IMG/VR virus record: IMGVR_UViG_3300028886_000075
Length of the DNA stretch: 64,000 nt
From: a virus
Lineage: Duplodnaviria; Heunggongvirae; Uroviricota; Caudoviricetes
Direction: 5' to 3' (one strand)
The notes below the pieces were generated by a model. The model was not told the origin of the DNA and did no database searches. It saw only the letters and a list, made by a program, of their open reading frames with translations. Below, piece after piece: positions 10,557-28,191 of this stretch. The stretch's first letter is position 1, and every line of letters begins with the position of its first letter. Both the position numbers and the translations under genes were made by a program.

Positions 10557-10632
10557 TATATTTACATCCTTATAAATTATTTTATTATTTTTATTAAATA
10601 ATATTATAACAAAAATAATTCAATAAATTAAT

Positions 10633-11265
10633 ATGAATTACGAAGGTAAATTTGGAACAGTAGATCCTCAAGAAAAGGGTAATGCTTTAGATGATTTATT
10701 TCTAAAAAGTGAAGCTCCTGATTTACAAGATACAGATGAGGCTTTAGAAACTCCATTATTGATAATTGATATGGAGGATGTAGATAAAAGAACTTTAGAT
10801 AGAGCTACATTAATTATTGATAAATTAGCAGCGTATTATTTTGATCAAAGATATATTGATAATCATCCTTATATTAAATCAAAGATAACTCAAGAAGTTG
10901 ATAATATTCGTCGTCTTCTTAAGATGTTAATGATTAATGAAAAGGCACAAGATACATTAATATTATCTATAACATCAAATTCTGGTAGAGGAACATTATA
11001 TACATCATTAACATCTTTACAGAATTCTATGTTATCGATGCAGTCACAATTAAATTCTTTAACATCAAACCTCGAAAATATATTTAAAGAAATGCAAGAT
11101 AATTGTGATAAGACATTCCAAGAAAAGGATAAAGAAGAATCAGATGATGGTTCTATGGTTGTTCGTGGTTCTCGTGATTTCATTAAAGAAATTGAAAGAT
11201 CTTTAAATAATAAATCTACACAAGAAACAAAAGAAGAATCTCAAGAAAACATAATAGCCCAATAA
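10633..11265 (+). CDS. hypothetical protein
   Basis: 210-aa ORF. Confidence 0.55.
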   Translation: MNYEGKFGTVDPQEKGNALDDLFLKSEAPDLQDTDEALETPLLIIDMEDVDKRTLDRATLIIDKLAAYYFDQRYIDNHPYIKSKITQEVDNIRRLLKMLMINEKAQDTLILSITSNSGRGTLYTSLTSLQNSMLSMQSQLNSLTSNLENIFKEMQDNCDKTFQEKDKEESDDGSMVVRGSRDFIKEIERSLNNKSTQETKEESQENIIAQ

Positions 11266-11325
11266 GAAATTATTATACTATTTAAATTTTATTTTTATAT
11301 ATAACTAATATATAAATTAATTAAT

Positions 11326-13524: not shown

Positions 13525-13709
13525 TGATTAGATTTAAAAATAAAGAAGCAATTAGTGTATACTTTAAAGGACGAACTATTATACAAATTTATCATAAGAA
13601 TAAATTAGTTTGGCCTGATGTAGATGGTAATTTAGCATGTTTTAATAATTCATTAAATAGCTGGAATGATGATTTACCATGGTTAGATGATATACCATGG
13701 ATTGATTAA
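13524..13709 (+). CDS. small protein downstream of the fibre gene (possible fibre chaperone)
   Basis: TAATG overlap with the fibre gene. 61 aa. Confidence 0.4.
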   Translation: MIRFKNKEAISVYFKGRTIIQIYHKNKLVWPDVDGNLACFNNSLNSWNDDLPWLDDIPWID

Positions 13710-13751
13710 TAATATATAACGATAATAATAAAAAATCTAACATAAATTATA

Positions 13752-16700
13752 ATGGCAAAAAAACAAGAAACTTATAATGGTAATATTACTGAGTTTATTG
13801 ACTGGGTTAATGGTGTAGATTCAATAACTGGACGTAATAAAACAAATAATTTACAAGTATCTGGAGGAGCTATTAGAAAACTTATTCAGAATCATTTAAA
13901 AAATCCTATAACCATGATTGAAGATAAAGAAAATGGTTTATATAGAATATTCTCAAGTGAAGCTGCATATAAAGCTTGGGAAAGTGATCCGGATACATAT
14001 TCAAATTTAGAATTGTTTAATTTTGTTAGACCAAGTGATTATACAATTGAAACTAATTTGAATATTGATAATAGATATCTTATTTCAGGTTTGCATGATC
14101 AATCAATTACAAAATTAGTATATGATTGGGTTGTACAAAATGATAAAGGTACTTTTGAAGACAATATTGTTGCAACATATACAATAACCACAGCTGCAGG
14201 AGCAGTTACTAAATTCTCACAAAACTATGATACTTCTAGTAAACATGTTGAATTAGATGTTTATGATTACTTAGATGTTGGTCAGACTTCAGTAAGAATT
14301 GATTTACGTGCAGTATCAACAGGTGCTACTCGTAACTATACAATATATATTACTCAACTTATATTAGAATTAGAATCTGATTTTCCATATTATAGTGAAC
14401 ATACTCCTGGTGTTGCTATTACATATTCGTGGAATTTAAAAAGAAATAATGCAGATAATGCATCATCATTATATGTATATGTAGATGGTATTGAAGTAAA
14501 CAAACAAGATATACAATTAGGATCTGCTAATGTAAGTGGTACAGTTACTATATTAACAGATAATTTAGCTGGTAGTTTTATACCACCATTAAATGATGTT
14601 ACATCTGACGGTAGAGTTTCTCATGTATTACAGATGTGTGTAAAAACAAAATATAATAACTTTGATTTTACAAGTAACATTCTATATTATACATTTGAAA
14701 TTAAATCATCAGATAGTGGTATTAAAAACTACTTTATAAATAATTTCTTTAATTTCTCTGCAGGTACAAAGATATTCCCAATATCTTTTGAAGGATTATA
14801 TTTATCTGCTACACAATATATGCCAGTTAGTATGAATTGGGCATATTATACTGATATGTTAGCATCAGAAAATACTGTACAAATTAATTGGAAATTATAT
14901 GAAAATGATGAAGGAACAGATCTTGCTACAATGGAAGCTTCTAAAGGATATAAACCTGACCCATTAGAATTCATACCTGCTACATATTCTAAAGAAGTAG
15001 AATTTAGTCCTGCAACAGCAACAATTAAATTAGTTGGTGAATATACATCTCAAGATGGACAAACTCGCAAATTATGTTCTATACCTATGTATATTGCAAA
15101 ATCTGCATTAAATATGGTTGAAACATCTGGTTATGATTATAAATTATCTGCTTATGGTAGATCAAATGCTAGTCAAACTAAATCAATATGGAATGGAGAA
15201 AAGGCAGTTTCTAATTTAGATAATATTACAACAAAATTTACAAATATTAAATGGGATGATAATTCAGGATGGTTTGAACATTCTTTTAGAACATCTGGAG
15301 ATAATTCATATTGTGAAATATCATATAACCCATTTAAAGGTAACCCTTCAGCTGGTCGTACAATTGAAGTTGAATTTGAATCTGAAAAAATATCTGACCC
15401 ATCAGATATATTGATAACAATTGGTGTACCTTATGATCCTGCAGATCCTGAACATACAAGAGGTCCTCGTATTGAAATTGGTGCTAATAAGGCAACATTA
15501 TATGATAAGGCAGGTAATGATTGTATACATACAAACTATAAAGCAAATGAAAGAGTAAAAATTGCATTTATAATTAATCCTGAAAATAATACTTCAGATT
15601 CAGGTTTGATTTATATTGTTTCTGATGGTGTTTTGGAACGTGGTGCTATGGCTGCAGGTCATGACTTTACAACACAAAACGGTAAAATTATAATCGGTAA
15701 ATCTGCATCAGGTGTTAAATTCTATAACTTCCGTACATATTTACGTAATATTGGTTATAGTGATGAATACAATAATTTTATTTATGATAATGACGAAAAA
15801 TTAAAATTAATCAATAATAATGCAGTTGTAGATAGTAGTACACAACAAATTGATTATCAATTATGTTGTAGAAAACTTGATACAATATTAATTTCAGGTA
15901 ACCTTTCACAAATTCTTAAAGGTGAAACTGGTAAAGAAGAATCAGAAATAGATGTAACAATTGAACGTTTCTGTCCATTTGATACAACAAAAAACTTTAA
16001 AGTTGAAGGATGTAGAATTAGAAAACATGGTCAATCAACATTGAACTATCCTATCACATCAATGAAATTCTGGTTAAATAAATCAGTTAACCCTGAAAAA
16101 ACTCCTAAATTTACTTGTGAAGGACAAGCATATCTTGGTTTAAATAAAAACCGTTATAAGATGAAAGACAATTCTGTTCCAAGTAATAAGTTTATTCTTC
16201 AAGCTAACTACGCTGATTCATCAGGTGTACATAACGGAAGTATACTTCGTGCAATTAATGATAGTTGGTTTAATGCAGATATAAATGGAGAATTTAAATT
16301 AAGAACAGAACCACAGTTATTCTCAACAAATCAAACTGCTACATTAAATGATGGAACAGTAATGGGTAAAAATTCAGAAGGTCAAAACTGGGATGATTGT
16401 ACAAAGAATCCATCTACAGGTCAAACATATACATTCCCATATCAAATAAGAAATGCTCCTGATTCATTCCCTTGTGTAGTATTCTATAAAGATACAGAAG
16501 GTACAAATAAGACAACATTCTTAGGCCAGTATGTATTTATGGAAGACAAGAAATCTGATTTTACATTTGGTGAAAGATCTATTTATAAAGCAGATCCTAA
16601 AGATCCATTCTGTATGTATACTGAAAATAAAGATTATGATACAGATGATAATAAGATTTGGGATAACGATAATGTATTAAGAATTGAAGTACTTAATATT

Positions 16701-19700
16701 AATACATTCTTCACATCTTATATGAGTGATCATGATGAAAATAACATAAGTTTTGATGCTAGAATTCCTCAATCACAAGGTTTAGATATATATCGTTGGG
16801 AACAAGATTTCGAAGTTATATATCCTGACCCAGATGATTTAGCTGGTAAAGTTGAAAAAGGAACAGATAAATGGGGTACAAATTCTAAATTTAAGAGAAC
16901 AACAGATCCATTTGTTAATTGGTTTAAATGGTTAGTAAGTACTTATAATAATCATGAAAAATTCCGTACTGAAGCACCTGCACATTTAGATTTATATAAG
17001 ATGGCAGCATATTATATAACAATGCTTCGTCTTGGTCTTGTTGACTCTGGTGAACGTAACGTTCAAATTAAGACATATGATGGTGTTCACTTCCATTATG
17101 AACCTTGGGATATGGATATTGCGTTAGGTAATAAGAACACTGGTGGTATTGCATATGATCCTCCAATTAATCGTAATACTAAATTAGGTGCAGAAGAATG
17201 GGCTATATCTGGTAAATCTACAGTAACATCTAACTGGTTATGGGATGCATTAGAAGCGTGGCCATTATTTATGAATACAATTGTTCCTACAACTGCGGAA
17301 GCATTATCAAAGGCAGGATTCAATTATAATTCATTAACAAAAATGTTTGATGAAGAATATTCTGGTAGATGGTGTGAAATAATATATAATGAATCTGGTC
17401 ACTATAAATATATTGAAAATGGTGGTAGTGAACGTCAATACCTTGATTGGTTACAAGGTTCTCGTATTAATCACAGACACTGGTGGTTATCTACATCAAT
17501 GGACTATTATGATGCAAGATGGACTTGTGGAGATTTCAAATCTCACTTTATATATATTGCTGCAGGTCACACACAAACAACTGCAGGTACAGATATTATT
17601 ACAGTAACTCCATCTAATCCAACATTCTTAACATTAACACAAAATGATGGTGAAGTAAATACAGATATTGAAGTTAGTCAAGAAGGTGATTCAACGGGAG
17701 ATAATACTGAACAAGTAGTTGTTGCTAAAGAATGTTCTAGAACAAATCCTGCAACATTTGATATTTCAACTTTATCATTCTCAAATAAAGTACCTACAAA
17801 GATTTTGGGTGCAACTTATATTGAAACATTAGATATAGCTTGTCTTGCTAATCGTATCGACCTTTTGGATATTAAAGGTGCATATTCTGAAGTAAATGGC
17901 GCTTCTATTAAAACAATTAATGTTGGTAATACTATAACAAAAGATCCTGATTATAATGATAATTATCACTATATCGGTGGTGTTAATACAACATATAATT
18001 TACGTTTACAAGTAAGCCCACAAAATGATAACCTTGAAAACTTAAATACACTTAATATTAGAGGTCAATTAGGTAAACGTGGTTCTAACCCATCAGTTAA
18101 CCCTAACTCATTATTCCGTGGTGGTAATGAAAAGACTGGTCGTCCACAGATTAAGAACTTATATGCTATGGGTGCTCATTTTAACTATTTCCAAAGTTCT
18201 AAATCTGGTAATGATTTTGAAAATCTTGAATTACCTGCAATAAACTATGATGGTGTTAAAGATGCATATGAAAATCTTTTACCACTTTCTACTATGGGTA
18301 GTATTGAAATGCATAACAGTTCTTGGCAAAACATATCATTCTGGAATGGTGTAGTTGACCCTGTAACTAATAAGATTAAATATGAAAGATATAATATTAA
18401 TGGTAATTATGATTATTATGTACCTACATCTATATCATCAATAACATTTACAGGTAGTACAGCAAACTCTGCAAAAGCTAAAGATTTTATATTTAATTGG
18501 ATTAATGGTATTATTTATGAAACAACATTAGCACATGAAGGAGAAACTGAAGAACAAATACAAGCCGCTGTCGATGCTGCACTTGCAGAAAAAACATTAA
18601 TACTTAAGGATGTTAATTGGCAGAAAGAAACATGTGGTAATGATTTTGCTTTATCATATGATGACTTAATATTATTATCTAAACTTAATAATGGTGAAAA
18701 TAATAATGGTGGTACAACATATAAAGGTTATGTTATATTAACTGGTGGTGCAAAACTCACTCCAATTGAATTAACAAGATTACAAATATTATTTGGTGAA
18801 TCTGCATTTGAACGTACTGGTTCTGGTTTAATTATTGACCAAGAAAATGAAGATGTTCAAATTAATCTTGCTGGAGATGCATACATTGGAGATAATGGAG
18901 AATTCTATTTAAGAGAAGTACCAACTAATGCAACCAATAAAGGTAAAGGTGGTATTGCTGTACTTAATGCTACTAAGTTCAGATTACAAGAAATAACCAA
19001 TACTGATTATAACTGGTATGTTAAATCAGAATTTGGTTCTGATGATCCAACAAGTTCATATAAATCATGTAGAATATCTGTAGGACAAGATGGTAGAACA
19101 TATTTGACAGCATCTGAAAGTCAATATGGAAATTATCGTGTTAATGTAGGTGTTACTATTGGGCAAGAACAAAAATGGATAGTAATTAATATTATTGGAA
19201 CAACATATCCTGATAGTTTTGAAATTAATGCTAATCCAATTAATGGTCAATATCTTTATAATGTAGATGAAGGTTATATCTTTGGTAGTGGTTCTTCATC
19301 ATCTGAATTCTATATCACACCTAATAAAGAATATGATGGTACTATATATGATGTAGTTTGGACATTAAAACGTGATGCCGATAATGTAACTCTTATTAAT
19401 AAAGAATCATATAAGATTTATGAGCAAACTCGTTCATTAGAAGAAGTTATGTTAGCAGAAGCTGATTCTTATTTAAAGAAATGCTATAATGTTAATGGTA
19501 CTGTATCTAATCCATTAGATTCACCTTATGGAATAATGTTAAAGGCAATTAATTCACCTGTTACATCAGATATGTATTACTATACATTAATTGTAGATAT
19601 TATTTATGTATCTGGTAAAACAATTTCTACATCAAAGAAAATTATCATAATGGATGATCAACAACCAATTATGACAAATGGTACATTGTTATATCAATTA

Positions 19701-20318
19701 ATTAATACATTCTATAAAGCTAATCATATTACTACAGAATATCCTGAAGGTAAATCATTAGAACCAAGAGTATATAGATATCAATTATTAGATGTTGGTG
19801 ATACAATTGATTTTACAACTTCATTTATAAATCAATCAACTGGTCAAGAAACTCAGATACAACATATGATAACGGATTATTCTAATGAAACAATATTAAA
19901 GTATTTGATTAATGTTAAAAATGTTATATTTGATGGTCTTTCATTAACTAATATATATACTAATTCATCTTCAAATACAGAGATTAATCAATTCGATTTT
20001 AGTTATATGGTTAATCTTGAAACTGTTTCAATAGTAAATTGTGATCAATTAACTGCGAATATTGATTTATCTAATAACAATAAATTAGTTTCTGTAGATG
20101 CAAGAGGAACTACAATTAATATTATTGTACCTGAAAATTGTACAACATTAACTACATATAAACTAGGTACGCCAACAAGTGTAACATTACATGGATGTAC
20201 TGGGTTAGTTCCTGCTAATGTATCGACTGATGATTCAGATAATATTAATTATATTGATATTGTTAATTGTGGTAACAATCAATCATTCTCAATATTTGGA
20301 AATGTAATGGGAGTATAA
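13752..20318 (+). CDS. giant virion-associated protein (2188 aa) with C-terminal leucine-rich-repeat-like repeats
   Basis: Uninterrupted 6.5-kb ORF inside the structural module. The C-terminus carries LRR-like repeats (LSLTNIYTN..LETVSIVNCDQLTANIDLSNNNKLVSV). A central region is rich in His/Trp/Asp motifs (HFHYEPWDMD, HRHWWLS). Confidence 0.6.
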   Translation: MAKKQETYNGNITEFIDWVNGVDSITGRNKTNNLQVSGGAIRKLIQNHLKNPITMIEDKENGLYRIFSSEAAYKAWESDPDTYSNLELFNFVRPSDYTIETNLNIDNRYLISGLHDQSITKLVYDWVVQNDKGTFEDNIVATYTITTAAGAVTKFSQNYDTSSKHVELDVYDYLDVGQTSVRIDLRAVSTGATRNYTIYITQLILELESDFPYYSEHTPGVAITYSWNLKRNNADNASSLYVYVDGIEVNKQDIQLGSANVSGTVTILTDNLAGSFIPPLNDVTSDGRVSHVLQMCVKTKYNNFDFTSNILYYTFEIKSSDSGIKNYFINNFFNFSAGTKIFPISFEGLYLSATQYMPVSMNWAYYTDMLASENTVQINWKLYENDEGTDLATMEASKGYKPDPLEFIPATYSKEVEFSPATATIKLVGEYTSQDGQTRKLCSIPMYIAKSALNMVETSGYDYKLSAYGRSNASQTKSIWNGEKAVSNLDNITTKFTNIKWDDNSGWFEHSFRTSGDNSYCEISYNPFKGNPSAGRTIEVEFESEKISDPSDILITIGVPYDPADPEHTRGPRIEIGANKATLYDKAGNDCIHTNYKANERVKIAFIINPENNTSDSGLIYIVSDGVLERGAMAAGHDFTTQNGKIIIGKSASGVKFYNFRTYLRNIGYSDEYNNFIYDNDEKLKLINNNAVVDSSTQQIDYQLCCRKLDTILISGNLSQILKGETGKEESEIDVTIERFCPFDTTKNFKVEGCRIRKHGQSTLNYPITSMKFWLNKSVNPEKTPKFTCEGQAYLGLNKNRYKMKDNSVPSNKFILQANYADSSGVHNGSILRAINDSWFNADINGEFKLRTEPQLFSTNQTATLNDGTVMGKNSEGQNWDDCTKNPSTGQTYTFPYQIRNAPDSFPCVVFYKDTEGTNKTTFLGQYVFMEDKKSDFTFGERSIYKADPKDPFCMYTENKDYDTDDNKIWDNDNVLRIEVLNINTFFTSYMSDHDENNISFDARIPQSQGLDIYRWEQDFEVIYPDPDDLAGKVEKGTDKWGTNSKFKRTTDPFVNWFKWLVSTYNNHEKFRTEAPAHLDLYKMAAYYITMLRLGLVDSGERNVQIKTYDGVHFHYEPWDMDIALGNKNTGGIAYDPPINRNTKLGAEEWAISGKSTVTSNWLWDALEAWPLFMNTIVPTTAEALSKAGFNYNSLTKMFDEEYSGRWCEIIYNESGHYKYIENGGSERQYLDWLQGSRINHRHWWLSTSMDYYDARWTCGDFKSHFIYIAAGHTQTTAGTDIITVTPSNPTFLTLTQNDGEVNTDIEVSQEGDSTGDNTEQVVVAKECSRTNPATFDISTLSFSNKVPTKILGATYIETLDIACLANRIDLLDIKGAYSEVNGASIKTINVGNTITKDPDYNDNYHYIGGVNTTYNLRLQVSPQNDNLENLNTLNIRGQLGKRGSNPSVNPNSLFRGGNEKTGRPQIKNLYAMGAHFNYFQSSKSGNDFENLELPAINYDGVKDAYENLLPLSTMGSIEMHNSSWQNISFWNGVVDPVTNKIKYERYNINGNYDYYVPTSISSITFTGSTANSAKAKDFIFNWINGIIYETTLAHEGETEEQIQAAVDAALAEKTLILKDVNWQKETCGNDFALSYDDLILLSKLNNGENNNGGTTYKGYVILTGGAKLTPIELTRLQILFGESAFERTGSGLIIDQENEDVQINLAGDAYIGDNGEFYLREVPTNATNKGKGGIAVLNATKFRLQEITNTDYNWYVKSEFGSDDPTSSYKSCRISVGQDGRTYLTASESQYGNYRVNVGVTIGQEQKWIVINIIGTTYPDSFEINANPINGQYLYNVDEGYIFGSGSSSSEFYITPNKEYDGTIYDVVWTLKRDADNVTLINKESYKIYEQTRSLEEVMLAEADSYLKKCYNVNGTVSNPLDSPYGIMLKAINSPVTSDMYYYTLIVDIIYVSGKTISTSKKIIIMDDQQPIMTNGTLLYQLINTFYKANHITTEYPEGKSLEPRVYRYQLLDVGDTIDFTTSFINQSTGQETQIQHMITDYSNETILKYLINVKNVIFDGLSLTNIYTNSSSNTEINQFDFSYMVNLETVSIVNCDQLTANIDLSNNNKLVSVDARGTTINIIVPENCTTLTTYKLGTPTSVTLHGCTGLVPANVSTDDSDNINYIDIVNCGNNQSFSIFGNVMGV

Positions 20319-20340
20319 TTATTTTATTAAATATTTATAA

Positions 20341-20375
20341 CATGGGTAATTATTCAATTAATTACCCATGTTTTG
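20341..20375 (+). terminator. rho-independent terminator (12-bp stem catgggtaatta/taattacccatg then TTTTG)
   Basis: Read directly from the sequence. Confidence 0.75.
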
Positions 20376-20489
20376 ATATATAATTGTTTCATTCATAAAT
20401 ATTTTTTTTATTTTTAAATAAAATAATATATAAATTCAAATAAAATATTATTTTTTAATATATAACAAAAATATCTGTAATGTATTAGT

Positions 20490-22193
20490 ATGACAAATAA
20501 GCGTTGCTTAATTTATGAAACATTAGGCAAAGTTTCAGATCTTCAGATTGTTGAGTCTGAAAATAGCAACGAAATGCGTCTTCATGGTATATTTGGTGTA
20601 TGTGGAATAAAAAACCAAAATAATCGTGTTTATGATAAAGATAATTACGGTCAAATGGTTGAATCTTTACAAAAAGAAATTCAAGAACATGGATGTCCAG
20701 GTGAATTAGAACACCCTAATTCTATGAATATTAATTTGCAAAATGTTTCACATAAGATAGAAGATATTCAAATGAATGAAGATGGTACAATTACTGGTAC
20801 AATACTTTTGCTTAATACTCCAAGTGGTAAGATTGCAAAAGCTATTGTTGAAGGTGGTTTACCACTTTATATTTCTTCTCGTGGTGCCGGTACAATTACT
20901 AATGAAGGTCGTGTTACGTTATCTACTATTAAGACATATGATCTAGTTGGTACTCCTGGATTTAGTCAAGCTAAACTTACTTTAAAGCCAAATCAAACTC
21001 TTGAATGTCTCAATGAAGGTCTAGATAATGATACAAATATCTGGGCAGTTATAGATGAAGGTAAAGATGATGATGATTTACTTGATAGTAATAATGACAA
21101 AGATAAGGATTCTAATGATAATGAATCTAAGGATAAATCTAAAGAAGAATCTAAGGATAAATCTAAAGAAGAACCAAAAGATAATGAAAATGACGATAAC
21201 AAAAATAATGGCAATGATAATATTGATATGAAAGAATTGAAAGAAGCTATAGATAAACTTACAGAAAAAGTTGAATCTTTAGAAGCTGAACTTCATGTAG
21301 CTCAAGAATCTTTGAATGAGACAAAAGAATCAATTAAGCCAATTAATTATGAAGCAATCGAGAAGTGGTGTACTGAGGAATTTGCTCCATCTTTAAAAAA
21401 TGAATTTAATGAAGATGTAGAAGAAAAAATTCAAAACAGTATCAATGAATCAATTGAATCATTAATGGATAATGTACAAAATTGGATAGTTGAAGAATTT
21501 GCTCCAGAAGTACAAAATTGGGTAGTTGAAGAATTTGCTCCAGAAGTACAAAATTGGGTAGTTGAAGAATTCTCACCTGAAGTACAAAATTGGATAACAG
21601 AAGAATTTGCTCCAGAAGTACAAAATTGGGTAGTTGAAGAATTTGCTCCAGAAGTACAAAATTGGGTAGTTGAAGAATTCTCACCTGAAGTACAAAATTG
21701 GATAACAGAAGAATTTGCTCCAGTTGTTGAAGGTTGGATAACTGAAGAATTTGCTCCAGAACAATCACAAACTATTGAAGCTAAAGTAAATGAAAATGTA
21801 TCTGCATTTATGGAATCTCAAAAGGCAGGTCGTTTAGATGAAATTGATAGCTTATTAGAATCTATTTCTCAAGATAGTAATTCAGATGTAAATAAGATTA
21901 TTAAAGAACAAGCTATTGAAAATAAATATAAAGGAGTTTTTGTTGTAGAAAATATGCCTTCTCAATATACACCTCAATGGGAATTATTAGATGAAGCACG
22001 TCAACAAGAAATAATCCGTACATCAAAAATGTATGATTTCTCTAAAGAAGGTGTTTTAGAATCATTCTGGGCTAACCAAGATTTATCAAAAACTACTGTA
22101 ACTAATAAAGTAAATGAATCAGTTAATCCAATTAATTCATACCAAATGTCTATAGTAGAAAAGATGAAAGCTCTTCGTAATCATGCAATTTAA
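20490..22193 (+). CDS. gp21: prohead protease (T4 gp21-like, peptidase U9 family) fused to an acidic repeat-rich C-terminal (scaffold-like) region
   Basis: The N-terminus aligns by eye with T4 gp21: PGELEHP against LGELNHP, YISSRGAGT against GVSSRGLGS, and DLVGTPGFSQA against DAVWGPSAP. The C-terminus has a KD/E low-complexity stretch and 8 copies of QNWVVEEFAPEV. Confidence 0.8.
   Translation: MTNKRCLIYETLGKVSDLQIVESENSNEMRLHGIFGVCGIKNQNNRVYDKDNYGQMVESLQKEIQEHGCPGELEHPNSMNINLQNVSHKIEDIQMNEDGTITGTILLLNTPSGKIAKAIVEGGLPLYISSRGAGTITNEGRVTLSTIKTYDLVGTPGFSQAKLTLKPNQTLECLNEGLDNDTNIWAVIDEGKDDDDLLDSNNDKDKDSNDNESKDKSKEESKDKSKEEPKDNENDDNKNNGNDNIDMKELKEAIDKLTEKVESLEAELHVAQESLNETKESIKPINYEAIEKWCTEEFAPSLKNEFNEDVEEKIQNSINESIESLMDNVQNWIVEEFAPEVQNWVVEEFAPEVQNWVVEEFSPEVQNWITEEFAPEVQNWVVEEFAPEVQNWVVEEFSPEVQNWITEEFAPVVEGWITEEFAPEQSQTIEAKVNENVSAFMESQKAGRLDEIDSLLESISQDSNSDVNKIIKEQAIENKYKGVFVVENMPSQYTPQWELLDEARQQEIIRTSKMYDFSKEGVLESFWANQDLSKTTVTNKVNESVNPINSYQMSIVEKMKALRNHAI
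21474..21762 (+). repeat. in-frame 36-bp tandem repeat x8 (encodes VQNW[IV][VT]EEF[AS]PE)
   Basis: Direct repeats of gtacaaaattgggtagttgaagaatttgctccagaa with minor variants. Confidence 0.85.
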
Positions 22194-22300
22194 AAAATAT
22201 TAAATAATATTTTTCTATTCAAAAAGAAAATTTTTATTTTTATATAAAATATAAAATTCTCATTAAGAGAGATAACAAATAAATTGAAGTTTTAAATAAT

Positions 22301-24058
22301 ATGTTTAATGAACAAAATGGCGCACAGACATGGGAGAAAATGTTGAAAGAAAACTTCAACGTAACAGACCAGGAAAAACTTAACTGGGTTTCTCAATATG
22401 CTGCTATTCACGAAATTCACGAATCTCAACTTGGAATCAATGGTGGTAACGTAGTAACAAGTACAGCTTATCCAGGTGTTGGTCCTATCTATACAACTCC
22501 AATGAATACTCTTGGTATTGGTAACCCAACTGCTCCAAGTCAATTAGATCCAATGAGCACTGCTCCTTACAATCAAGCTAACCCAACAGGTTCATTCTGG
22601 GGACAAACTCCAGGTTCTGGTGATATTCCAGTATCTACACTTCCAATGGCTCTTAACGTTGCATTGTTAACTATTGGTCTTGAACTTGTACCTGTTATTC
22701 CTGCTAAGGGTCCTTGGGCTATGTTAACATACATGGACTTCCCATACGCTGGTGGTAAACTTGGTCGTGTAAATGAAACATCTTTCGATGGTAAAGGTGA
22801 AAAGAATGAAAACAAACCAATCTACATCAAGATTAAAGGTTTAACACTTCCACAAATCGCTGAAATACGTGAAGCTATGGAAGCTGCTCAAAATCCTGTT
22901 AAAGCTGACGATGCTGTAGTAGTTGCAGGTTTCAAAGGTACATTCATTATGCTTGGTCGTATGGATGCTTGTCCTCTTGTTAAGGTTGTAGAATGCACAG
23001 ATGCAAATACTTCAATAGTTGAAGAATTTAATGCTGCTACATCTGTTGTAATTGGTTCTAAGACAATTACTCTTGCTGCAGGTCAAAAGGTTACTCCTGA
23101 TTTCGTACAAACATCTGTTGATTTAGTTGACGGTTTCGCTAACTTCGCTACAGGTAAGAAAGAATCTATGACACGTGCTCAAAATGAAACTGGTACAGGT
23201 AATGTAATTGGTCTTCGTTTATTCAGTAAGTGGGTTCAAATGGGTTCATACGAAGTTACTGGTACTGTAACTCGTCAACAATTACAAGATCTTCCACTTT
23301 ATGGTGTTGATGCTGTAGGTAAAGTTATGGAAGCTCTTCAAAACGAAATTACACAACACATCAACCAACGTATTCTTGAAAGAGTATTTGCTCTTGGTGT
23401 TACAAATGCTGTACAACAAAAGGCTCGTCAAGGTGTTGATTTGAACTTGTGGATGGGTAAGACAGGTGCTTCTGTTGACATGGCAGATCATTATGCTGGT
23501 GTTCCTCACTTCACAGATATCTATGGTACAGACCATAAACCATTATGGAAAGGTATTTCTAACTCTGAAGTTAACACTTCTGCAGAAAATCTTTCAACAC
23601 GTCAACGTCGTATCATGAGCCGTATCTTAGCTGCTGCTAACTTAATCCAATTGGTAGGTCGTCGTGGTCGTCCAACATGGATCGTTACTAACGGTAAGAT
23701 TGCTTCTGCTCTTCAAGATGTATCTGGTTATGTAGTTGCTCCAATGCTTAATACAATGTCTCAAGCTAATACTCAAAACTTATATCACGCTGGTACAGTT
23801 GCTGGTCTTCAAGTTTATGTAGATCCATATATGGACTGGAATGATACACGTATCTGTATTGGTCGTAAGGGTACAGGTAATGAACCTGGTGTAATATTCA
23901 TGCCATACATTCTTGCTGATACTGTATCTATCACTGCTGAAGGTACAATGGCTCCTAAGATGTTGGTTAACAGCCGTTATGGTATCGCTGAAGCTGGTTT
24001 CTTCCCAGAACTTGCATACTTCACATTGGTTGTTGATTCAGAATTTGATTTGATCTAA
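22301..24058 (+). CDS. gp23: major capsid protein (T4 gp23-like)
   Basis: Several collinear matches to T4 gp23: DLPLYGVDAVGKVMEALQNEITQHINQRILE against LRAVHGMDADAELSGILATEIMLEINREVVD, GRRGRPTWIVTNGKIASALQDV against GRGEGNFIIASRNVVNVLASV, and the C-terminus MPYILADT...RYGIAEAGFFPE against APYVALTP...RYGIGINPFAE. Host-optimal codons. A terminator follows the gene. Confidence 0.88.
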   Translation: MFNEQNGAQTWEKMLKENFNVTDQEKLNWVSQYAAIHEIHESQLGINGGNVVTSTAYPGVGPIYTTPMNTLGIGNPTAPSQLDPMSTAPYNQANPTGSFWGQTPGSGDIPVSTLPMALNVALLTIGLELVPVIPAKGPWAMLTYMDFPYAGGKLGRVNETSFDGKGEKNENKPIYIKIKGLTLPQIAEIREAMEAAQNPVKADDAVVVAGFKGTFIMLGRMDACPLVKVVECTDANTSIVEEFNAATSVVIGSKTITLAAGQKVTPDFVQTSVDLVDGFANFATGKKESMTRAQNETGTGNVIGLRLFSKWVQMGSYEVTGTVTRQQLQDLPLYGVDAVGKVMEALQNEITQHINQRILERVFALGVTNAVQQKARQGVDLNLWMGKTGASVDMADHYAGVPHFTDIYGTDHKPLWKGISNSEVNTSAENLSTRQRRIMSRILAAANLIQLVGRRGRPTWIVTNGKIASALQDVSGYVVAPMLNTMSQANTQNLYHAGTVAGLQVYVDPYMDWNDTRICIGRKGTGNEPGVIFMPYILADTVSITAEGTMAPKMLVNSRYGIAEAGFFPELAYFTLVVDSEFDLI

Positions 24059-24125
24059 TAAATATATGTGAGACATTTCTGACTCGCCTCTATATATTAA
24101 TCACGTTCCTAAATGGAACAACACT

Positions 24126-24156
24126 GAGCAGGGTTTTTAAACTCTGCTCTTTTTTG
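24126..24156 (+). terminator. rho-independent terminator after the capsid gene (gagcag-12nt-ctgctc then TTTTTTG), preceded by a second small hairpin gttcc-taaat-ggaac (24105-24119)
   Basis: Read directly from the sequence. Confidence 0.7.
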
Positions 24157-24303
24157 TTAAAAAATATTCATTATTAATAATAATATTTGAATATAAATTT
24201 TCAAATGATATTAAAAAATTTTATTTTTATTAAATTGTATAATATTCTATTTGCATAAATTATGGTTATAGAATATATTAATACAATTAATGCATATAAT
24301 AAA

Positions 24304-24311
24304 TATAAATA
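24304..24311 (+). promoter_or_regulatory. TATAAATA T4-type late-promoter-like motif upstream of the tail sheath gene
   Basis: Exact TATAAATA lies 15-22 nt upstream of the ATG at 24326. Confidence 0.35.
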
Positions 24312-24325
24312 AAAGATATACAAAT

Positions 24326-27300
24326 ATGGCAATTCCAGTACATTTGCAACAATTTAAAGCCGCAGGTATATACCGTGTTGTATTTGATCATTCAACTGTA
24401 TTGAATATGGACACACAAATGCTTAGATTGGTTGTAGGATATTCAGAAGTTGGTCCTTTTAATGTTCCAGTTCTAGTACAAAATCCTCAAGAATTTAAAG
24501 CAATATTTGGAGATATATCTAAAAAGCTTGAAAAACGTGGTATTTATTTCCACCGTTTAGCATTACAGATGCTTCAGGTAAGTCCAGTGTTATGTCTTAA
24601 TCTTAAAAAATTCGATGGCGAAACAGTAGGTGCTGCTACTATTAATACTGAGTTTAACCCTAAGTTTACTCCAATTGATGAAGTTAAGTTAAATGTTGAA
24701 GACATATATGACACAACACGTTTCTGGACTTTGGATGCTGAACGTCTTAATAATTTACGTTCTGTAGAAGGTACATTGTTAGATCAATATATTAATATTG
24801 CTACAACTAATGTAAAGAATACTTCTGCAACATACTTTATTCGTAAAGCTTCAGGTTCTAAAGTTGCTGGTTATAATATTACAGTTAACGATTGGTATTC
24901 TGACGAAACTATGCCAGATTACATGGAACCTTATAAGAATAATTTAATTTCTGACTTCTTTGCAGAAATTTATGTATTCAAAGGAAAATTTGAAGCTAAA
25001 CAAATTCTTGCATCAGATACATTAAAAGATTATTTCATTGTAACAAATGAACTTGATGAAGATGGTAACCAAGTATTAAAACTTCGCGATAAAGTTATTA
25101 ATGCATTTGGTGAAGCTGTCGATACTCTTGATGCATTATATAGAGATGAAACATCTAATGCATTAGGTCATTATATTGGTTCTATTATTCCTTATTTCAA
25201 GAATAAACAAGGTGCTTATGCTTGTCTTGATGTAATTTTCAATACTGATCTTGATGTTCATAATATGATGTTAACATTCAATAAGGATTTACTTGAAGAA
25301 GAACTTGCTGCTAATATTGATCTTTCTGGACGTATGTTTATTCCAACAAAGTCAAATCCTAATAAAGCAAACAGTTCATTAAGTATTGATAAAATTTATG
25401 CAGGTACTGCTACAACAACAGTATTAGGTAACGTTAATGCTCCTGTTATTGCTGATGTTATTTCATTTAAATCTAGTATTTATGATCCTGAAACAGAAAC
25501 TGCTATTCAAGATTTGGTTGTTTCTCGTAATCGTATTTCAGGTACTCTTTATGTTAAAGAAATTACTGAAAATCAAATATTCCTTGCTCAAGTAGGTTCT
25601 GAACAAGAAGTTGTTTTGACTTTTTACGATGAAACCGATACAAAAGCTAAGACTGTAGCTGCAGCTAAAACTCTTGGTGTAATATTTGATGGTAATGGCG
25701 AACCAATTGATGAAACTGGTACAATGTGGAAAGCTGGGGATGCATTCCTTAACAAGATTGACCCACTCGCTGGTCCTCAACAAGTAATTACTGCTCTTTC
25801 TCGTCTTGAACATAAATCAGATGATGGTACAGAATATACTGACATTGATGAAAACATGAAACCTTCATTAAAAGAAAGTGAAGTACAAACAATAGCTAAG
25901 TATGTTAATACAAATACTGTTGGTGCTGATTCAGTTTATGGTTCTTCTATTTCATTCATTGATTTCTGTGATGATAACTGGGAATATGTAGAAGACGCTG
26001 AAATTCAAACTGGTGTTAAGCAAGCTGCTTTGATTGGTACTGCACAACATGATTCTTCATTGATTAATGTACTTCAAAAAGGTGATTGTATCTTAGCAAA
26101 AGACAATACTGTTGATGTTAATGATAACGGTGAAAATGATGATGCTGATGGATTTGAAGATAATGTTTATGTACAAGAAACAGGTACTAAGACTGATGAA
26201 AATGGTAACTTCTTATTCTATTATATTATTCTTTCTGCAGAACCTTACTTCTATGAAATATTAGATGAAGAAACTGGTGCTATGGTTAATCAATGTTTAG
26301 TTCGTGTAGATGCTGCTCTTAACCAAGAAATTGGTACAATGACTCCTCAATATCTTGAAGGTTATACATATAAGAATGATCGTCCACTTGGAACAGGAAT
26401 GTATGCTAAAGTTAAATGGCAAGAATTTATACTTTCTGCATTAACTGATTATAAGGGACTTCGTACTGGTCTTTTGAATAAATCTGAAATTGATTATCGT
26501 TATGTAATTGATACATTCGAATCATTCCCAGTAACTAGTCTTAAGAATGCACTTTCTTATTTATGTAAAGAAAAACAATCTGCATTCTGTATTGCAAACT
26601 TCCCATCAGTACAAAATTTTATTAAGTGTCCTTATACATCATTCACAGACTCTAAAGGTGTATTTAATGTAGATTATGTAGTTAAAGGATTCAATAAGAA
26701 GAAAGCTGCTTCTATGATGTTTAGTTTACCTTCTGAAATTGATGGTGCTTCATTTATCGCATTCTATACTCCACTTAAGTTTACTGATGGATATATTGAT
26801 ACAATAGTTCCATCTGCAGGTTTAGTTTCTAACTTGTTTGTAGGTAAATATTTGGGTCGTCAACCTTACTACATTGTTGCAGGTCCTAATTATGGTAGTA
26901 TTACTGCTGCCGGTTTAGTTGGTCCTGATTATAAATACTCTCAAGATGAACTTCAAATAATTGAACCATTTGGTGTTAACTGTATGGTATATCGTCCAAA
27001 CTTTGGTACATTCATTAATGCTAACCAAACTGCTAAACAAACTCCTGTTTCAGCACTTTCTAAGGTTAATGTTCGTGAATTGGTAATTTACTTACAGGAC
27101 GAAATTGAAAAAGTTCTTCAATCATATCAATGGGAATTTAATAACCCACGTACCCGTAATGCAATTCTTGATAAAGCAAATCAAATTTGCGCAGTTATCA
27201 TGGCAAATGGTGGTATACAAGCTTACCAAAATATAATGGATGAATCTAATAACACACCTGAAATTATTGATAATGAAATGGCTGTTATTACAACTCGCAT

Positions 27301-27385
27301 TGAACCAGGTATGGGTTGCGGTAAGATGGTACAAGAACTTCACCTATACAGAACAGGTCAAATGTCTTCAAATATTATAGATTAA
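24326..27385 (+). CDS. gp18: tail sheath protein (T4 gp18-like), enlarged with insertion domains
   Basis: Sheath-like N-terminus (AAGIYRVVFD...VVGYSEVGPFNVPVLVQNPQEFKAIFG). The C-terminus DESNNTPEIIDNEMAVITTRIEP parallels T4 gp18 CDTTNNTPSVIDRNEFVATFYIQP. The start is moved from the ORF-track ATG at 24290 to 24326, because the TATAAATA motif would otherwise fall inside the coding sequence. Confidence 0.8.
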   Translation: MAIPVHLQQFKAAGIYRVVFDHSTVLNMDTQMLRLVVGYSEVGPFNVPVLVQNPQEFKAIFGDISKKLEKRGIYFHRLALQMLQVSPVLCLNLKKFDGETVGAATINTEFNPKFTPIDEVKLNVEDIYDTTRFWTLDAERLNNLRSVEGTLLDQYINIATTNVKNTSATYFIRKASGSKVAGYNITVNDWYSDETMPDYMEPYKNNLISDFFAEIYVFKGKFEAKQILASDTLKDYFIVTNELDEDGNQVLKLRDKVINAFGEAVDTLDALYRDETSNALGHYIGSIIPYFKNKQGAYACLDVIFNTDLDVHNMMLTFNKDLLEEELAANIDLSGRMFIPTKSNPNKANSSLSIDKIYAGTATTTVLGNVNAPVIADVISFKSSIYDPETETAIQDLVVSRNRISGTLYVKEITENQIFLAQVGSEQEVVLTFYDETDTKAKTVAAAKTLGVIFDGNGEPIDETGTMWKAGDAFLNKIDPLAGPQQVITALSRLEHKSDDGTEYTDIDENMKPSLKESEVQTIAKYVNTNTVGADSVYGSSISFIDFCDDNWEYVEDAEIQTGVKQAALIGTAQHDSSLINVLQKGDCILAKDNTVDVNDNGENDDADGFEDNVYVQETGTKTDENGNFLFYYIILSAEPYFYEILDEETGAMVNQCLVRVDAALNQEIGTMTPQYLEGYTYKNDRPLGTGMYAKVKWQEFILSALTDYKGLRTGLLNKSEIDYRYVIDTFESFPVTSLKNALSYLCKEKQSAFCIANFPSVQNFIKCPYTSFTDSKGVFNVDYVVKGFNKKKAASMMFSLPSEIDGASFIAFYTPLKFTDGYIDTIVPSAGLVSNLFVGKYLGRQPYYIVAGPNYGSITAAGLVGPDYKYSQDELQIIEPFGVNCMVYRPNFGTFINANQTAKQTPVSALSKVNVRELVIYLQDEIEKVLQSYQWEFNNPRTRNAILDKANQICAVIMANGGIQAYQNIMDESNNTPEIIDNEMAVITTRIEPGMGCGKMVQELHLYRTGQMSSNIID

Positions 27386-27401
27386 TTTATTATTAAATAA
27401 A

Positions 27402-27425
27402 GGAGATGGGTTTAAACCCATCTCC
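27402..27425. terminator. 24-nt perfect GC-containing palindrome ggagatgggttt/aaacccatctcc between the sheath and tube genes (terminator or RNA-processing hairpin; no T-run)
   Basis: Read directly from the sequence. Confidence 0.4.
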
Positions 27426-27468
27426 ATATATAAAAAAGAATATAAGAAATACATAATTAATATAAATA

Positions 27469-28080
27469 ATGGCAACTAAATCATTAACTCATTTACCTCA
27501 TATTAAGAATGTAAAATCTGGTATTAATAAATACGACCCAGTACATAATTCAATATATGAAGTATATTTTACATTGCCTGATGCTTTGAAACCTGAATTT
27601 GCTGAAGATGAAGTTTTATTAACAGAACAAGTAACAAATGTAAGTGGTTTGGATGTATTACAAAAGACAACTCCAGCAGGTGAACAAAAATTCTATGGAG
27701 TTACTGTTTCATATTTAAATCCTGTTCTTGATACAACTGCTGCTGATATTACAATTGATTTCAACCTTAACTTACGTAATGTTACAGATAACTTCGTTCT
27801 TAAATTGTTTAAGGCTTGGGAAAATCTTTCATATAATCTTGCTGACGGTACACGTTCAATTAAGGTAGGTTATATTTCTGATAATTTAAGAATTGCTGTT
27901 GCAACTCGTAATGGTGATGTATGGAGAAGTACTATATTCCACCACATTATGTTAACTAATGTTACATCTGAACTTGATGCATTAGATTATCAAAATAATG
28001 ATGCTATGAAACTTCACTGCACATTCCGTTGTGACTATTGGGAAGATGAACTTTCTGGTCCACAAGAATCAGCTGCATAA
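27469..28080 (+). CDS. gp19: tail tube protein (T4 gp19-like)
   Basis: C-terminus LDALDYQNNDAMKLHCTFRCDYWED against T4 gp19 LQLDWDSNNEIQTFEVTLALDYWE. Sits directly after the sheath gene. Confidence 0.75.
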   Translation: MATKSLTHLPHIKNVKSGINKYDPVHNSIYEVYFTLPDALKPEFAEDEVLLTEQVTNVSGLDVLQKTTPAGEQKFYGVTVSYLNPVLDTTAADITIDFNLNLRNVTDNFVLKLFKAWENLSYNLADGTRSIKVGYISDNLRIAVATRNGDVWRSTIFHHIMLTNVTSELDALDYQNNDAMKLHCTFRCDYWEDELSGPQESAA

Positions 28081-28111
28081 TGTTGAATTTTTTATAAATT
28101 ATCTAAATATA

Positions 28112-28149
28112 AAATACACATACTCAGAGTATGTGTATTTTGTTTTTTT
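28112..28149 (+). terminator. rho-independent terminator (aaatacacatactc-aga-gtatgtgtattt then TGTTTTTTT)
   Basis: Read directly from the sequence. Confidence 0.75.
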
Positions 28150-28175
28150 ATTATTATATATATTAACAAAACTAT

Positions 28176-28183
28176 TTATAAAT
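28176..28183 (+). promoter_or_regulatory. TATAAATA late-promoter-like motif 9-16 nt upstream of the 28192 ATG
   Basis: Exact octamer in an intergenic region. Confidence 0.35.
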
Positions 28184-28191
28184 AAAAAAAT

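Follow-up and report, generated by a model that had tools for sequence, protein, structure and literature searches.

A T4 gp21-type prohead protease joined in one reading frame to a probable repeat-built scaffold module in a putative huge phage

The gene considered here lies in a 64-kb window (the whole stretch of 64,000 nucleotides analysed, from the tailed-phage record IMGVR_UViG_3300028886_000075) and encodes a protein of 567 aa (64.6 kDa, pI 4.3) that opens with a domain resembling the T4 prohead protease gp21 and continues into a long, acidic, repeat-bearing extension. T4 keeps its scaffold protein gp22 in a separate gene, and the locus thus raises the question of what the extension does and whether one or two proteins are made from the frame. 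The explanation that we favor, and consider probable, is that of a protease-linker-scaffold head-assembly protein of a huge phage [Table 1]. The phage itself appears to be very large and to infect a member of the Bacteroidota; a megablast search against the phage collection returned no match, indicating that it has no close sequenced relative there.

The N-terminal domain is almost certainly a serine protease of the T4 gp21 type, in agreement with the first-pass annotation of this DNA. It matches Pfam Peptidase_S77 (PF03420) over aa 29-141 (39.6 bits, cut-off 27, E 5e-10) and PHROG 207, "head maturation protease" (E 8e-37), and its catalytic residues H75, S129 and D151 are invariant both in an alignment with T4 gp21, PAU, pT24 and PTm1 and across about 45 diverse S77 proteins. 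While a search of PDB sequences with the single sequence did not recover gp21, a family profile finds the T4 gp21 structure 5JBL (E 0.0023), in which the positions aligned to H75 and S129 are occupied by Ala in place of the His and Ser of wild-type T4. The fold was judged on an AF2 model of aa 1-190, a predicted and not an experimental structure, built from a diverse S77 alignment (pLDDT 76.4, pTM 0.72); Foldseek matched it to 5JBL (E 8e-10, TM 0.68/0.77, rmsd 3.2 Å) and next to HCMV protease (probability 0.93), VZV protease being matched as well. The comparison of fold and catalytic Ser/His that the annotation had suggested thus came out in favor of gp21, and family, fold and catalytic His/Ser/Asp all agree with T4. 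The full-length AF2 model is weaker (pLDDT 52.6, with the protease domain poorly modelled) because the underlying alignment was short of diversity. Peptidase S80 (PF20034) gave no match to the window protein at E <= 0.1; two close homologues (P0021, P0060) reach 24.9-25.5 bits on S80 (cut-off 23.4), always under their own S77 score.

Table 1. Position of the protease-scaffold gene, its parts and the neighboring signals in the window (AF2, AlphaFold 2; TRF, Tandem Repeats Finder)
Feature	Position	Strand	Evidence or remark
Putative late-gene motif ATAACAAAAATATC, starting 28 nt upstream of the protease start	20462..20475	+	top PWM match in window
Protease-scaffold ORF	20490..22193	+	567 aa
Peptidase S77 (T4 gp21-type) protease domain, aa 1-165	20490..20984	+	Pfam S77, invariant catalytic residues, AF2/Foldseek
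Catalytic codons	His75 20712-20714, Ser129 20874-20876, Asp151 20940-20942	+	alignments
Candidate self-release sites L174-N175-E176 (21009-21017) and I188-D189-E190 (21051-21059)	21009..21059	+	conservation; putative cleavage
Charged D/E/K/N/S low-complexity linker, aa 191-246	21060..21227	+	TRF, AF2
Internal motif copy ATAACAAAAATAAT, within the CDS, starting 32 nt upstream of the Met247 codon	21196..21209	+	8-mer counts
Proposed nested protease-less scaffold ORF from Met247, 321 aa, 37.3 kDa, pI 4.2 (putative product)	21228..22193	+	conservation
Predicted helix aa 247-281 (KELKEAIDKLTEKVESLEAELHVAQESL)	21228..21332	+	AF2 pLDDT about 80; strongly conserved
Degenerate ninth repeat copy (AIEKWCTEEFAP), aa 289-300, upstream of the array	21354..21389	+	alignment
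Eight tandem 36-bp / 12-aa repeats, aa 329-424, consensus [VI]Q[NG]W[VI][VT]EE[FY][AS]PE	21474..21761	+	TRF, homologues
Non-repetitive conserved C-terminal domain, aa 425-567, motif NMPxxYxPxWexL...FW	21762..22190	+	homologues
Putative late-gene motif ATAACAAATAAATT, starting 29 nt upstream of the capsid start	22272..22285	+	9/11 loci, 26/31 loci
gp23-like major capsid protein, presumed partner and substrate	22301..24058	+	Pfam Gp23 E 3e-31
Candidate capsid propeptide cleavage I-H-E-I-H-E42	22406-22426	+	conserved I-x-E

The fused gene adjoins the 5' side of a gene for a gp23-like capsid protein, the position held by gene 22 in T4, and the locus resembles that of T4 in gene order (protease, scaffold function, gp23-like capsid) and in specifying an acidic, helical core protein. 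It differs in that protease and scaffold share one ORF. The departure from T4 had been pointed out earlier and stands, but it is no peculiarity of this genome. More than 100 full-length homologues, on contigs of up to 467 kb, have a common layout consisting of protease, charged linker, coiled coil, W-x-x-E-E-F-x-P dodecads (4-10 copies) and C-terminal domain; the fusion architecture was found in the 120 best full-length homologues and in most of 194 cluster representatives, where the match usually falls in the second half of proteins 470-650 aa long. The same fusion occurs in the cultured Tenacibaculum phages pT24 and PTm1, with degenerate repeats, and, together with the C-terminal domain, in Lak-B2 and LR756500. 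Since the fusion recurs across the homologues, pT24, PTm1, Lak-B2 and LR756500, we regard it as the norm in this phage group. Our search for literature on the architecture, the Tenacibaculum phage proteins or the upstream motif described below found nothing specific.

Closest among cultured phages are pT24 (BPT24_140, 527 aa) and PTm1 (ORF-300, 564 aa). Their proteases are about 50% identical to the one described here, their scaffold halves are homologous to it (for pT24, BLAST E 1e-13) and end in the same C-terminal domain, and the fused gene stands directly 5' of the capsid gene. Units of the repeat type can be read in pT24 (QNWVIKEFAP and QKWTVNEFAP), but the repeats of both phages are few and degenerate, with a period in PTm1 of roughly 16-17 aa as judged by eye, and the charged low-complexity region lies 3' of the repeats rather than 5' as here. 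The combination of a maturation protease and a scaffolding domain in one polypeptide is in itself a known principle: P2 gpO is a self-cleaving protein with an N-terminal protease, a middle region and a C-terminal scaffolding domain (PMC7552001). The resemblance, in which scaffolding is predicted on our side, is one of layout, and gpO is much shorter (residues 1-284, PMC7552001) and devoid of tandem repeats.

The C-terminal 350 aa had been described as low-complexity, which is an overstatement: only aa ~190-246 are of low complexity, and aa 425-567 are non-repetitive and conserved. The linker is modelled by AF2 as disordered, with pLDDT <35 and no predicted secondary structure, its length is highly variable among homologues, and public assemblies often break inside it. 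Its own short repeat (ESKDKSKE), first given as a 27-nt unit at 21121-21180, has a period of 24 nt according to TRF, with 2.6 copies at 21123-21184. The helix that follows, to judge by its sequence pattern, probably forms a coiled coil and may serve as an oligomerization element. At the other end, the C-terminal domain is kept in all homologues as well as in pT24 and PTm1 and is also found in LR756500 and, more weakly, in Lak-B2; we propose that it is the end of the scaffold that binds the capsid protein.

Taken as a module, aa 247-567 are acidic (pI 4.2; 68 D+E vs 25 K+R) and predicted to be helical, and these two properties, together with the position 5' of the capsid gene, support a scaffold-like nature. 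We consider it quite probable that the C-terminal half is a scaffold or assembly module. In sequence it is unrelated to T4 gp22, from which it also differs in being built from dodecad repeats: the window protein does not match T4_CASP (PF25623), on which T4 gp22 itself scores 298 bits, and BLASTP revealed no similarity of aa 204-567 to T4 gp22 (E 1.7) or of the scaffold half to PAU gp152. This lack of similarity to known scaffolds would also suit another view, according to which the C-terminal half acts as a capsid-targeting tail or as an internal head protein, bringing the protease into the prohead before being cut off, the true scaffold being encoded elsewhere, conceivably outside the window, which is 64 kb of a much larger genome. 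Such a role has been proposed for the C-terminal regions of two giant-phage relatives of gp21 in the Peptidase S80 family, phiKZ gp175 and SPN3US gp245, which cut at A-x-E and remove their own C-terminal region, that of gp245 being regarded as the part that directs the enzyme into the prohead (PMC5694885). Those proteins, however, have a length of about 260 aa, ending in a short C-terminal tail and lacking a scaffold module, whereas the extension seen here, at about 380 aa, is far beyond the length of a targeting peptide, is helical, acidic and repeat-built in the manner of scaffolds, and holds the gene-22 position beside the capsid gene; a scan of ten neighboring ORFs found none matching a scaffold family. 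We therefore regard a targeting tail as improbable and retain the scaffold module as the preferred reading.

The most conspicuous part of this module is the repeat array. The eight in-frame 36-bp repeats reported in the first-pass annotation are confirmed: TRF finds a 36-bp unit in 8.0 copies with 84% matches and no indels, and a higher-order period of 108 bp with 93% matches. All eight units read VQNW[IV][VT]EEF[AS]PE, and the repeat region as a whole spans aa 283-424. The array lies inside predicted helices (aa 309-420, block pLDDT about 57-82 in the AF2 model). Every repeat contains a Pro, so that a single unbroken helix is doubtful. Among the 120 best homologues, 954 copies of the 12-aa unit were counted, all retaining W, E and E, and the array can therefore not be ascribed to chance. 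Tandem copy number, which the annotation had proposed to compare across relatives, does vary, from 4 to 10. The 3'-terminal units are positionally orthologous between homologues and the central ones homogenized by lineage; in the window, units 5-7 arose from units 2-4 by one recent 108-bp duplication, and a near-identical strain lacks exactly four units, a clean difference. The recent expansion or contraction read earlier from the conservation of the repeats at the nucleotide level thus applies to the central units only. The array itself is an old helix-forming module under strong purifying selection, within which central units duplicate and are deleted.

All the contigs concerned were assembled from short metagenomic reads, units 2-4 are almost identical to units 5-7 across about 108 bp, and the strain with four fewer units stems from an assembly at k=141, so that one may ask whether the array or its copy number is an assembly artefact. 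We hold this to be very improbable. All of the 120 best homologues, which derive from numerous samples and assemblers, carry in-frame arrays of the 12-aa unit, the 8-unit gene is present on two public contigs (identical on the second, L005), and the 144 bp missing from the related strain do not match the longest exact internal repeat, whose offset is 108 bp. The existence of the array is secure, with uncertainty limited to the exact number of units (8 vs 4).

A further question is whether the scaffold module is also made without the protease. What is new here is an invariant Met247 at the start of the module with a putative late-gene motif upstream of it, which is suggestive of a nested product. 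Because a rebuilt PWM penalized the flanks of the internal site, counting was done on the 8-mer core. Exact ATAACAAA is found 27-30 nt before the orthologous protease start at 8/13 loci and 26-32 nt before the Met247 equivalent at 11/13; among further loci the corresponding figures are 15/38 (29/38 with one mismatch allowed) and 26/40 (32/40 with one mismatch allowed). Over the 13 loci, 29 of the 38 plus-strand ATAACAAA matches lie 26-32 nt (in one case 44 nt) upstream of the protease, Met247 or capsid ATG. The Met247 ATG itself is invariant in 38/38 non-redundant orthologues. Synonymous-codon conservation peaks here, the top 12 of 482 windows all falling at aa 232-258 with observed/expected values of up to 1.30 (mean 1.00, sd 0.09), and the rare Asn codon AAC is used for 26 of 31 Asn at the position of the internal motif, vs 24% gene-wide. 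Conservation of the D-N-K-N-N stretch could reflect a constraint at the protein level. The case is one of conservation among related, non-independent sequences. Within the single window, ATAACAAA occurs 15 times in 64 kb of an AT-rich genome, 8 of them inside genes, and its presence in one genome accordingly means little; nor were the counts of GATAACAAA and of the 14-mer significant in the window alone. Enrichment of k-mers in upstream regions was uninformative, being dominated by general AT-richness, and scans for sigma-70-type promoters and terminators yielded nothing useful. In the most distant fused homologues (L021, L090, L104) the motif is absent both here and before the protease gene. 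A short out-of-frame ORF that ends with ATGA at Met247 was considered as a device for translational coupling and rejected, since by eye it is not conserved in orthologues.

These observations can be read in another way, namely as a plain single-product fusion in which, as in P2 gpO (PMC7552001), protease and sole scaffold are made 1:1, with Met247 and D-N-K-N-N kept for protein-level reasons such as the start of a coiled coil and the motif incidental. pT24 and PTm1 are fused and yet have no Met at the equivalent position, and ATAACAAA is also present within other genes of the window. The "scaffold-only" proteins of the databases lend the second product no help either, as they are artefacts of assembly gaps and contig ends: P0121 and P0128, which seem to start at the Met247 equivalent as standalone scaffolds, owe this to linkers interrupted by an N-run and by the end of a contig, and P0124, known from a single contig, follows an in-frame TGA at the Cys173 codon and was not counted. 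Such a fusion would leave unexplained, however, that the suppression of synonymous change peaks exactly around Met247, that a rare codon is preserved just before it, that the distance from motif to ATG equals that of both flanking late genes, and that, of the 333 internal in-frame ATGs of the window, Met247 alone is preceded by the exact motif at that distance. We view the single-product fusion as possible but not the probable arrangement, and lean, with little more than even confidence, toward a nested scaffold-only product comprising aa 247-567.

Nested protease and scaffold genes yielding a protease-less scaffold with the same C-terminus are established for herpesvirus UL26/UL26.5 (assemblin-scaffold) and lambda C/Nu3. 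The locus would share with them a protease of the same fold superfamily N-terminal to the scaffold and a candidate in-frame internal start. It differs in that the second product is here predicted from conservation, in that the scaffold halves have no sequence relationship, and in the nature of the internal signal, a short late-gene motif in a low-complexity coding linker.

By analogy with these systems, the following scheme can be proposed for the two-product reading. Late in infection, the gene would give rise to the full-length protein from its first ATG and to a more abundant protease-less scaffold from the internal one, as the conservation around Met247 suggests. Sharing the scaffold half, both products would co-assemble with the gp23-like capsid protein encoded next door, and the prohead would in this way acquire the protease as a minority component, as with UL26/UL26.5 and lambda C/Nu3. 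Proteases of the gp21 superfamily cut after Glu, as in T4, and at A-x-E in SPN3US and phiKZ (PMC5694885). Extrapolating from these three phages, the enzyme would, once the shell is assembled, cut after Glu and might release itself at L-N-E176 or I-D-E190, both of which fit the pattern [LI]-x-E and of which L174, N175, E176 and E190 are invariant in 58 homologues. The capsid propeptide would be trimmed at I-H-E: an N-terminal I-x-E, compatible with the L/I-x-E specificity of T4, is kept in all capsid orthologues and in PTm1 and pT24, and the capsid protein has no Glu from aa 43 to about 125. Finally, the repeat rod would be cut down to short acidic peptides, whose exit from the head would free space for the DNA. 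The repeat units do include motifs ending in Glu (W-[IV]-x-E and A/S-P-E) that would suit an enzyme of the gp21 type, and the chances that they are actually cut appear to us evenly balanced. The suggestion made earlier that the repeats are scaffold-like core elements is favored by the position, acidity and predicted helicity of the C-terminal part and by the Glu-ending motifs of the repeats, the digestion within them being the conjectural part.

Throughout, the array would set the length or the valency of the rod, with central units duplicated and deleted by recombination and the motif maintained by selection; that the array varies and is under selection is shown by the homologues, and the functional consequence is our proposal. 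In its widest form, which we put forward as speculation and think rather unlikely to hold in full, a large clade of huge phages would possess a herpesvirus-like nested gene in which ATAACAAA, as a late promoter or start signal embedded in the linker, and an ATG ~30 nt downstream direct the synthesis of abundant protease-less scaffold, and in which the repeat number sets the rod length and could tune capsid size.

For the annotation of these genomes, ATAACAAA offers a practical marker of structural, probably late, genes, and the frequent breaking of assemblies in the linker, or the collapse of the repeats, gives rise to truncated "protease-only" or "scaffold-only" calls in public databases. The number of repeats (4-10 or more) provides a countable variable for comparison with capsid size. 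More generally, the gene points to a scaffold function fused to the protease in a very large and mostly uncultured group of phages, to which the cultured Tenacibaculum phages and relatives of the Lak megaphages belong. Should the internal start prove real, the two-product arrangement of the herpesviruses would also be that of tailed phages equipped with a T4-type protease, adding a regulatory parallel to the structural ones already known.

The ORF at 20490-22193 on the plus strand encodes a protein of 567 amino acids whose N-terminal domain matches Pfam Peptidase_S77 above the gathering score (E 5e-10) and PHROG 207, 'head maturation protease' (E 8e-37). His75, Ser129 and Asp151 are invariant in an alignment with T4 gp21, PAU gp151 and the Tenacibaculum phage proteins, and likewise in a second alignment of 44 diverse S77 proteins. 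The family profile also matches the T4 gp21 crystal structure 5JBL (E 0.0023), whose chain carries Ala in place of the wild-type T4 His and Ser at the two positions aligned with His75 and Ser129; we read these alanines as engineered active-site mutations. The AlphaFold model of the full-length protein was poor (pLDDT 52.6). A domain-only model of the protease, built from a diverse alignment, reached a pLDDT of 76.4 and a pTM of 0.72, and Foldseek matched it to 5JBL (E 8e-10, TM 0.68/0.77) and then to the HCMV and VZV proteases. The first-pass annotation had called this domain gp21-like unless modelling should find the catalytic Ser and His missing; the assignment stands, since His75, Ser129 and Asp151 are all present and the predicted fold matches 5JBL.

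In T4, the gene order is 21, 22 and 23. The place of gene 22 is filled in the window by the C-terminal 380 residues of the protease ORF [Table], and no scaffold match was found in ten neighbouring ORFs. The module that begins at Met247 (internal ATG at 21228) is acidic (pI 4.2), its repeat block of 96 residues counting 24 acidic and 0 basic ones, and its first helix is read as a coiled coil. Earlier, the C-terminal 350 residues had all been taken for low-complexity sequence, which overlooks this conserved helix and the C-terminal conserved domain, and the linker repeat had been given a period of 27 nt instead of 24 nt. The account of what the parts are was otherwise largely right, although it made the fusion too exceptional and the repeats too recent. 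We note that public assemblies break within the linker, with a run of Ns in one related contig (L007, about 2730-2830) and unrelated sequence at the start of another (L008, 1-308). Gene callers at such broken linkers yield truncated proteases and 'scaffold-only' proteins starting at the Met247 equivalent; as candidate separate genes, these database entries proved to be artefacts of assembly gaps, and the breakage is an annotation trap for the protein family.

Features of the protease-scaffold gene and its neighbourhood (nucleotides of the window, or residues of the 567-aa protein)
Feature	Position	Remarks
2188-aa ORF	13752-20318	precedes protease gene; PHROG 14959, no assigned function
Perfect AT-rich hairpin (ATGGGTAATTA...TAATTACCCAT)	20343-20370	after the 2188-aa ORF
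Invariant motifs L-N-E176 and x-x-E190-G	aa 166-190	
D/E/K/N/S linker	aa 191-246	length differs greatly among homologues; disordered in model
Small linker repeat	21123-21184	24 bp x 2.6 (Tandem Repeats Finder)
Conserved predicted helix	aa 247-281	
Repeat region	aa 283-424	inside predicted helices aa 309-420; block pLDDT about 57-82
Conserved domain	aa 425-567	non-repetitive
Gp23-like major capsid protein gene	22301-24058	next after protease-scaffold ORF
Tail sheath gene	24290-27385	after capsid gene
Tail-tube-like gene		after tail sheath gene

Among 5.8 billion proteins searched, more than 2,500 matched, and the best 120 of these are full-length proteins (519-589 aa) on contigs of up to 467 kb; all but three align over 99-100% of the query with 61-100% identity. 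An exhaustive search with aa 247-567 alone gave 194 cluster representatives, and in most of them the matching part is the C-terminal half of a protein of 470-650 aa. Among cultured phages, the nearest relatives are two jumbo phages of Tenacibaculum, pT24 (527-aa protein) and PTm1 (564-aa protein). In both, as in the window, the capsid gene follows immediately after the fused gene, and the scaffold half is homologous to that of the window protein (BLAST E 1e-13 for pT24), with degenerate versions of its repeat unit such as QNWVIKEFAP. A protease with a long extension is likewise encoded by Prevotella phage Lak-B2 (MK250021) and by the 462-kb phage LR756500 (632-aa fused protein). The Lak-B2 gene is open over 581 codons only with TAG as sense and is broken to 76 codons in the standard code, in which the window reads cleanly. 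The C-terminal domain of the window protein is clearly related to the end of the LR756500 protein (NMPxxYxxxW...FW) and more weakly to that of Lak-B2, whereas the middle regions of both are unlike its own. PAU and XacN1, in contrast, have genes encoding the protease only, the PAU scaffold being annotated separately. Given the full-length homologues, the cultured relatives, Lak-B2 and LR756500 that share it, the fusion is the usual arrangement across a broad group of huge phages and not a quirk of the window genome; the principle itself was already known from P2 gpO (PMC7552001).

At 21474-21761, Tandem Repeats Finder identified a 36-bp unit in 8.0 copies without indels, along with a higher-order period of 108 bp (93% matches). 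Read in frame, the eight units conform to VQNW[IV][VT]EEF[AS]PE, units 5-7 being a near-exact repeat of units 2-4, in agreement with the coordinates and count reported at first pass. The 954 tandem units extracted from the best 120 homologues give the consensus [VI]-Q-[NG]-W-[VI]-[VT]-E-E-[FY]-[AS]-P-E, in which W, E and E are invariant and P occurs in 98%. The last two units (...APV / VEGWITEEFAPE and variants) keep their position between genomes and the central ones are homogenised by lineage, as seen in four identical units of contig L012 and in the 108-bp duplication of the window. The array is therefore old, is under purifying selection and turns over in its centre by duplication and deletion. 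The recent expansion or contraction proposed earlier holds for the central units, but not for the array as such. Strictly counted, tandem copy number in the best 120 homologues varies from 4 to 10. In L004, a contig from another sample, the gene is identical to that of the window at all 1,560 aligned bases and lacks exactly 144 bp, or four units. With 19 and 1 substitutions in its flanks (19 of the 20 in the 2188-aa ORF), L004 is a distinct but very close strain, and its four units against eight could reflect either true copy-number variation or short reads collapsed in assembly. That the array exists is certain. By geometry alone, an ideal alpha-helix would bring the hydrophobic residues V1, W4, V5 and F9 of the unit onto one face, with the next unit turned by 120 degrees.

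Met247 is the first Met past the linker and is invariant. When synonymous-codon identity was compared with per-amino-acid expectation in codon alignments of 13 and then 38 non-redundant orthologues, the 12 top windows of 482 all fell at aa 232-258, flanking Met247 on either side, with observed/expected ratios of up to 1.30 (mean 1.00, sd 0.09). The conserved DNA before Met247 is GAT AAC AAA AAT AAT, and the rare codon AAC accounts for 26 of 31 Asn at the conserved site (24% gene-wide). This sequence, as the motif (T)ATAACAAA(A/T)ATA, is also found about 27-30 nt upstream of the protease and capsid ATGs in the window and its orthologues. In counts that are not independent, because the loci are related to one another, the core ATAACAAA has 38 plus-strand and only 5 minus-strand matches in 13 loci (95 kb), 29 of the 38 preceding the protease, Met247 or capsid ATG by 26-32 nt, or by 44 nt in one case (8/13, 11/13 and 9/11 loci, respectively). 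Among 40 additional loci, the internal Met has the exact 8-mer before it in 26 (32 with one mismatch allowed), and the capsid ATG has it in 26/31. ATAACAAA alone is not rare in the window (15 matches, 8 within genes). Gene starts with the motif (at most one mismatch) cluster in the structural block 10633-29826, where plus-strand copies stand about 25-31 nt before the start codons of consecutive genes, and dozens of related contigs keep the motif ahead of their protease and capsid orthologues. Among 333 internal in-frame ATGs in the 78 called genes of the window, Met247 alone has the exact motif at that spacing. We conclude that the motif is a signal for structural, probably late, genes, and that in this group of phages it probably serves as the late-gene promoter or as a start signal; its fixed spacing would fit very short leaders. 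Plus-strand copies or one-mismatch variants were noted at 10606, 11299, 13716, 20462, 22272, 27440 and 28164. A weaker match (AAAAAACAAATAAATA, 56009-56038) lies within gene 55598-56719, 27 nt upstream of an in-frame ATG at 56036 that would give a 227-aa nested product; this match may be due to chance.

A copy of the motif thus appears to be maintained inside coding sequence ahead of Met247, the simplest reading being a second product, a protease-less scaffold of 321 aa and 37 kDa. The counterparts of such a product would be herpesvirus UL26.5 and lambda Nu3, both from well-established systems. The candidate nested start is absent in pT24, PTm1 and the most distant fused homologues. We note that the T4 RefSeq record annotates internal translation initiation in gene 21 (449-1087 of the T4 locus, with a start at 515 versus 449 and a smaller protein), a precedent even in T4 for two products from a head-protease gene. 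One related contig (L124, ENA ERZ28653753 scaffold_24835) has an in-frame TGA at 2226-2230, the codon of invariant Cys173 (..TLE*LNAGLD..), and is otherwise intact in reading frame, internal ATAACAAA and Met. Sequencing error, recoding and a nonsense allele are all conceivable explanations of the TGA; in the last case, the scaffold would be made from the internal start alone.

The T4 protease, as others of its superfamily, cuts after Glu. In SPN3US and phiKZ the cleavage motif is A-x-E (PMC5694885). Near its N-terminus the capsid protein carries a conserved I-H-E-I-H-E42, encoded by a 9-bp tandem duplication (22406-22423) that all orthologues share; the Tenacibaculum phages have I-T-E or I-N-E there. 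Between this motif and the conserved fold lies a Glu-free, Pro/Gly/Thr-rich stretch of about 80 residues (aa 43 to about 125), which fits a propeptide of about 40 residues cut off at an I-x-E site. Each repeat unit contains W-[IV]-x-E and [AS]-P-E, and if all of these were cut, only peptides of 5-7 residues would be left of the rod. The protease could plausibly release itself at L-N-E176 and I-D-E190; these sites, like those in the capsid and repeats, are inferred. Within the putative propeptide, capsid residues 27-33 (22379-22400; K-L-N-W-V-S-Q-Y) resemble the repeat core Q-N-W-V-V-E-E-F, and LNWV, LEWV or LDWI is conserved in orthologues. This resemblance could be a coincidence or could reflect similar helix-packing surfaces in both.

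Compared with described systems, what is new is that a very large huge-phage clade has, as its standard layout, a T4-type (S77) protease joined to a scaffold built of repeats, together with a strongly conserved dodecad unit of variable copy number and bioinformatic evidence suggestive of a nested scaffold start, with a probable late-gene motif lying within coding sequence.
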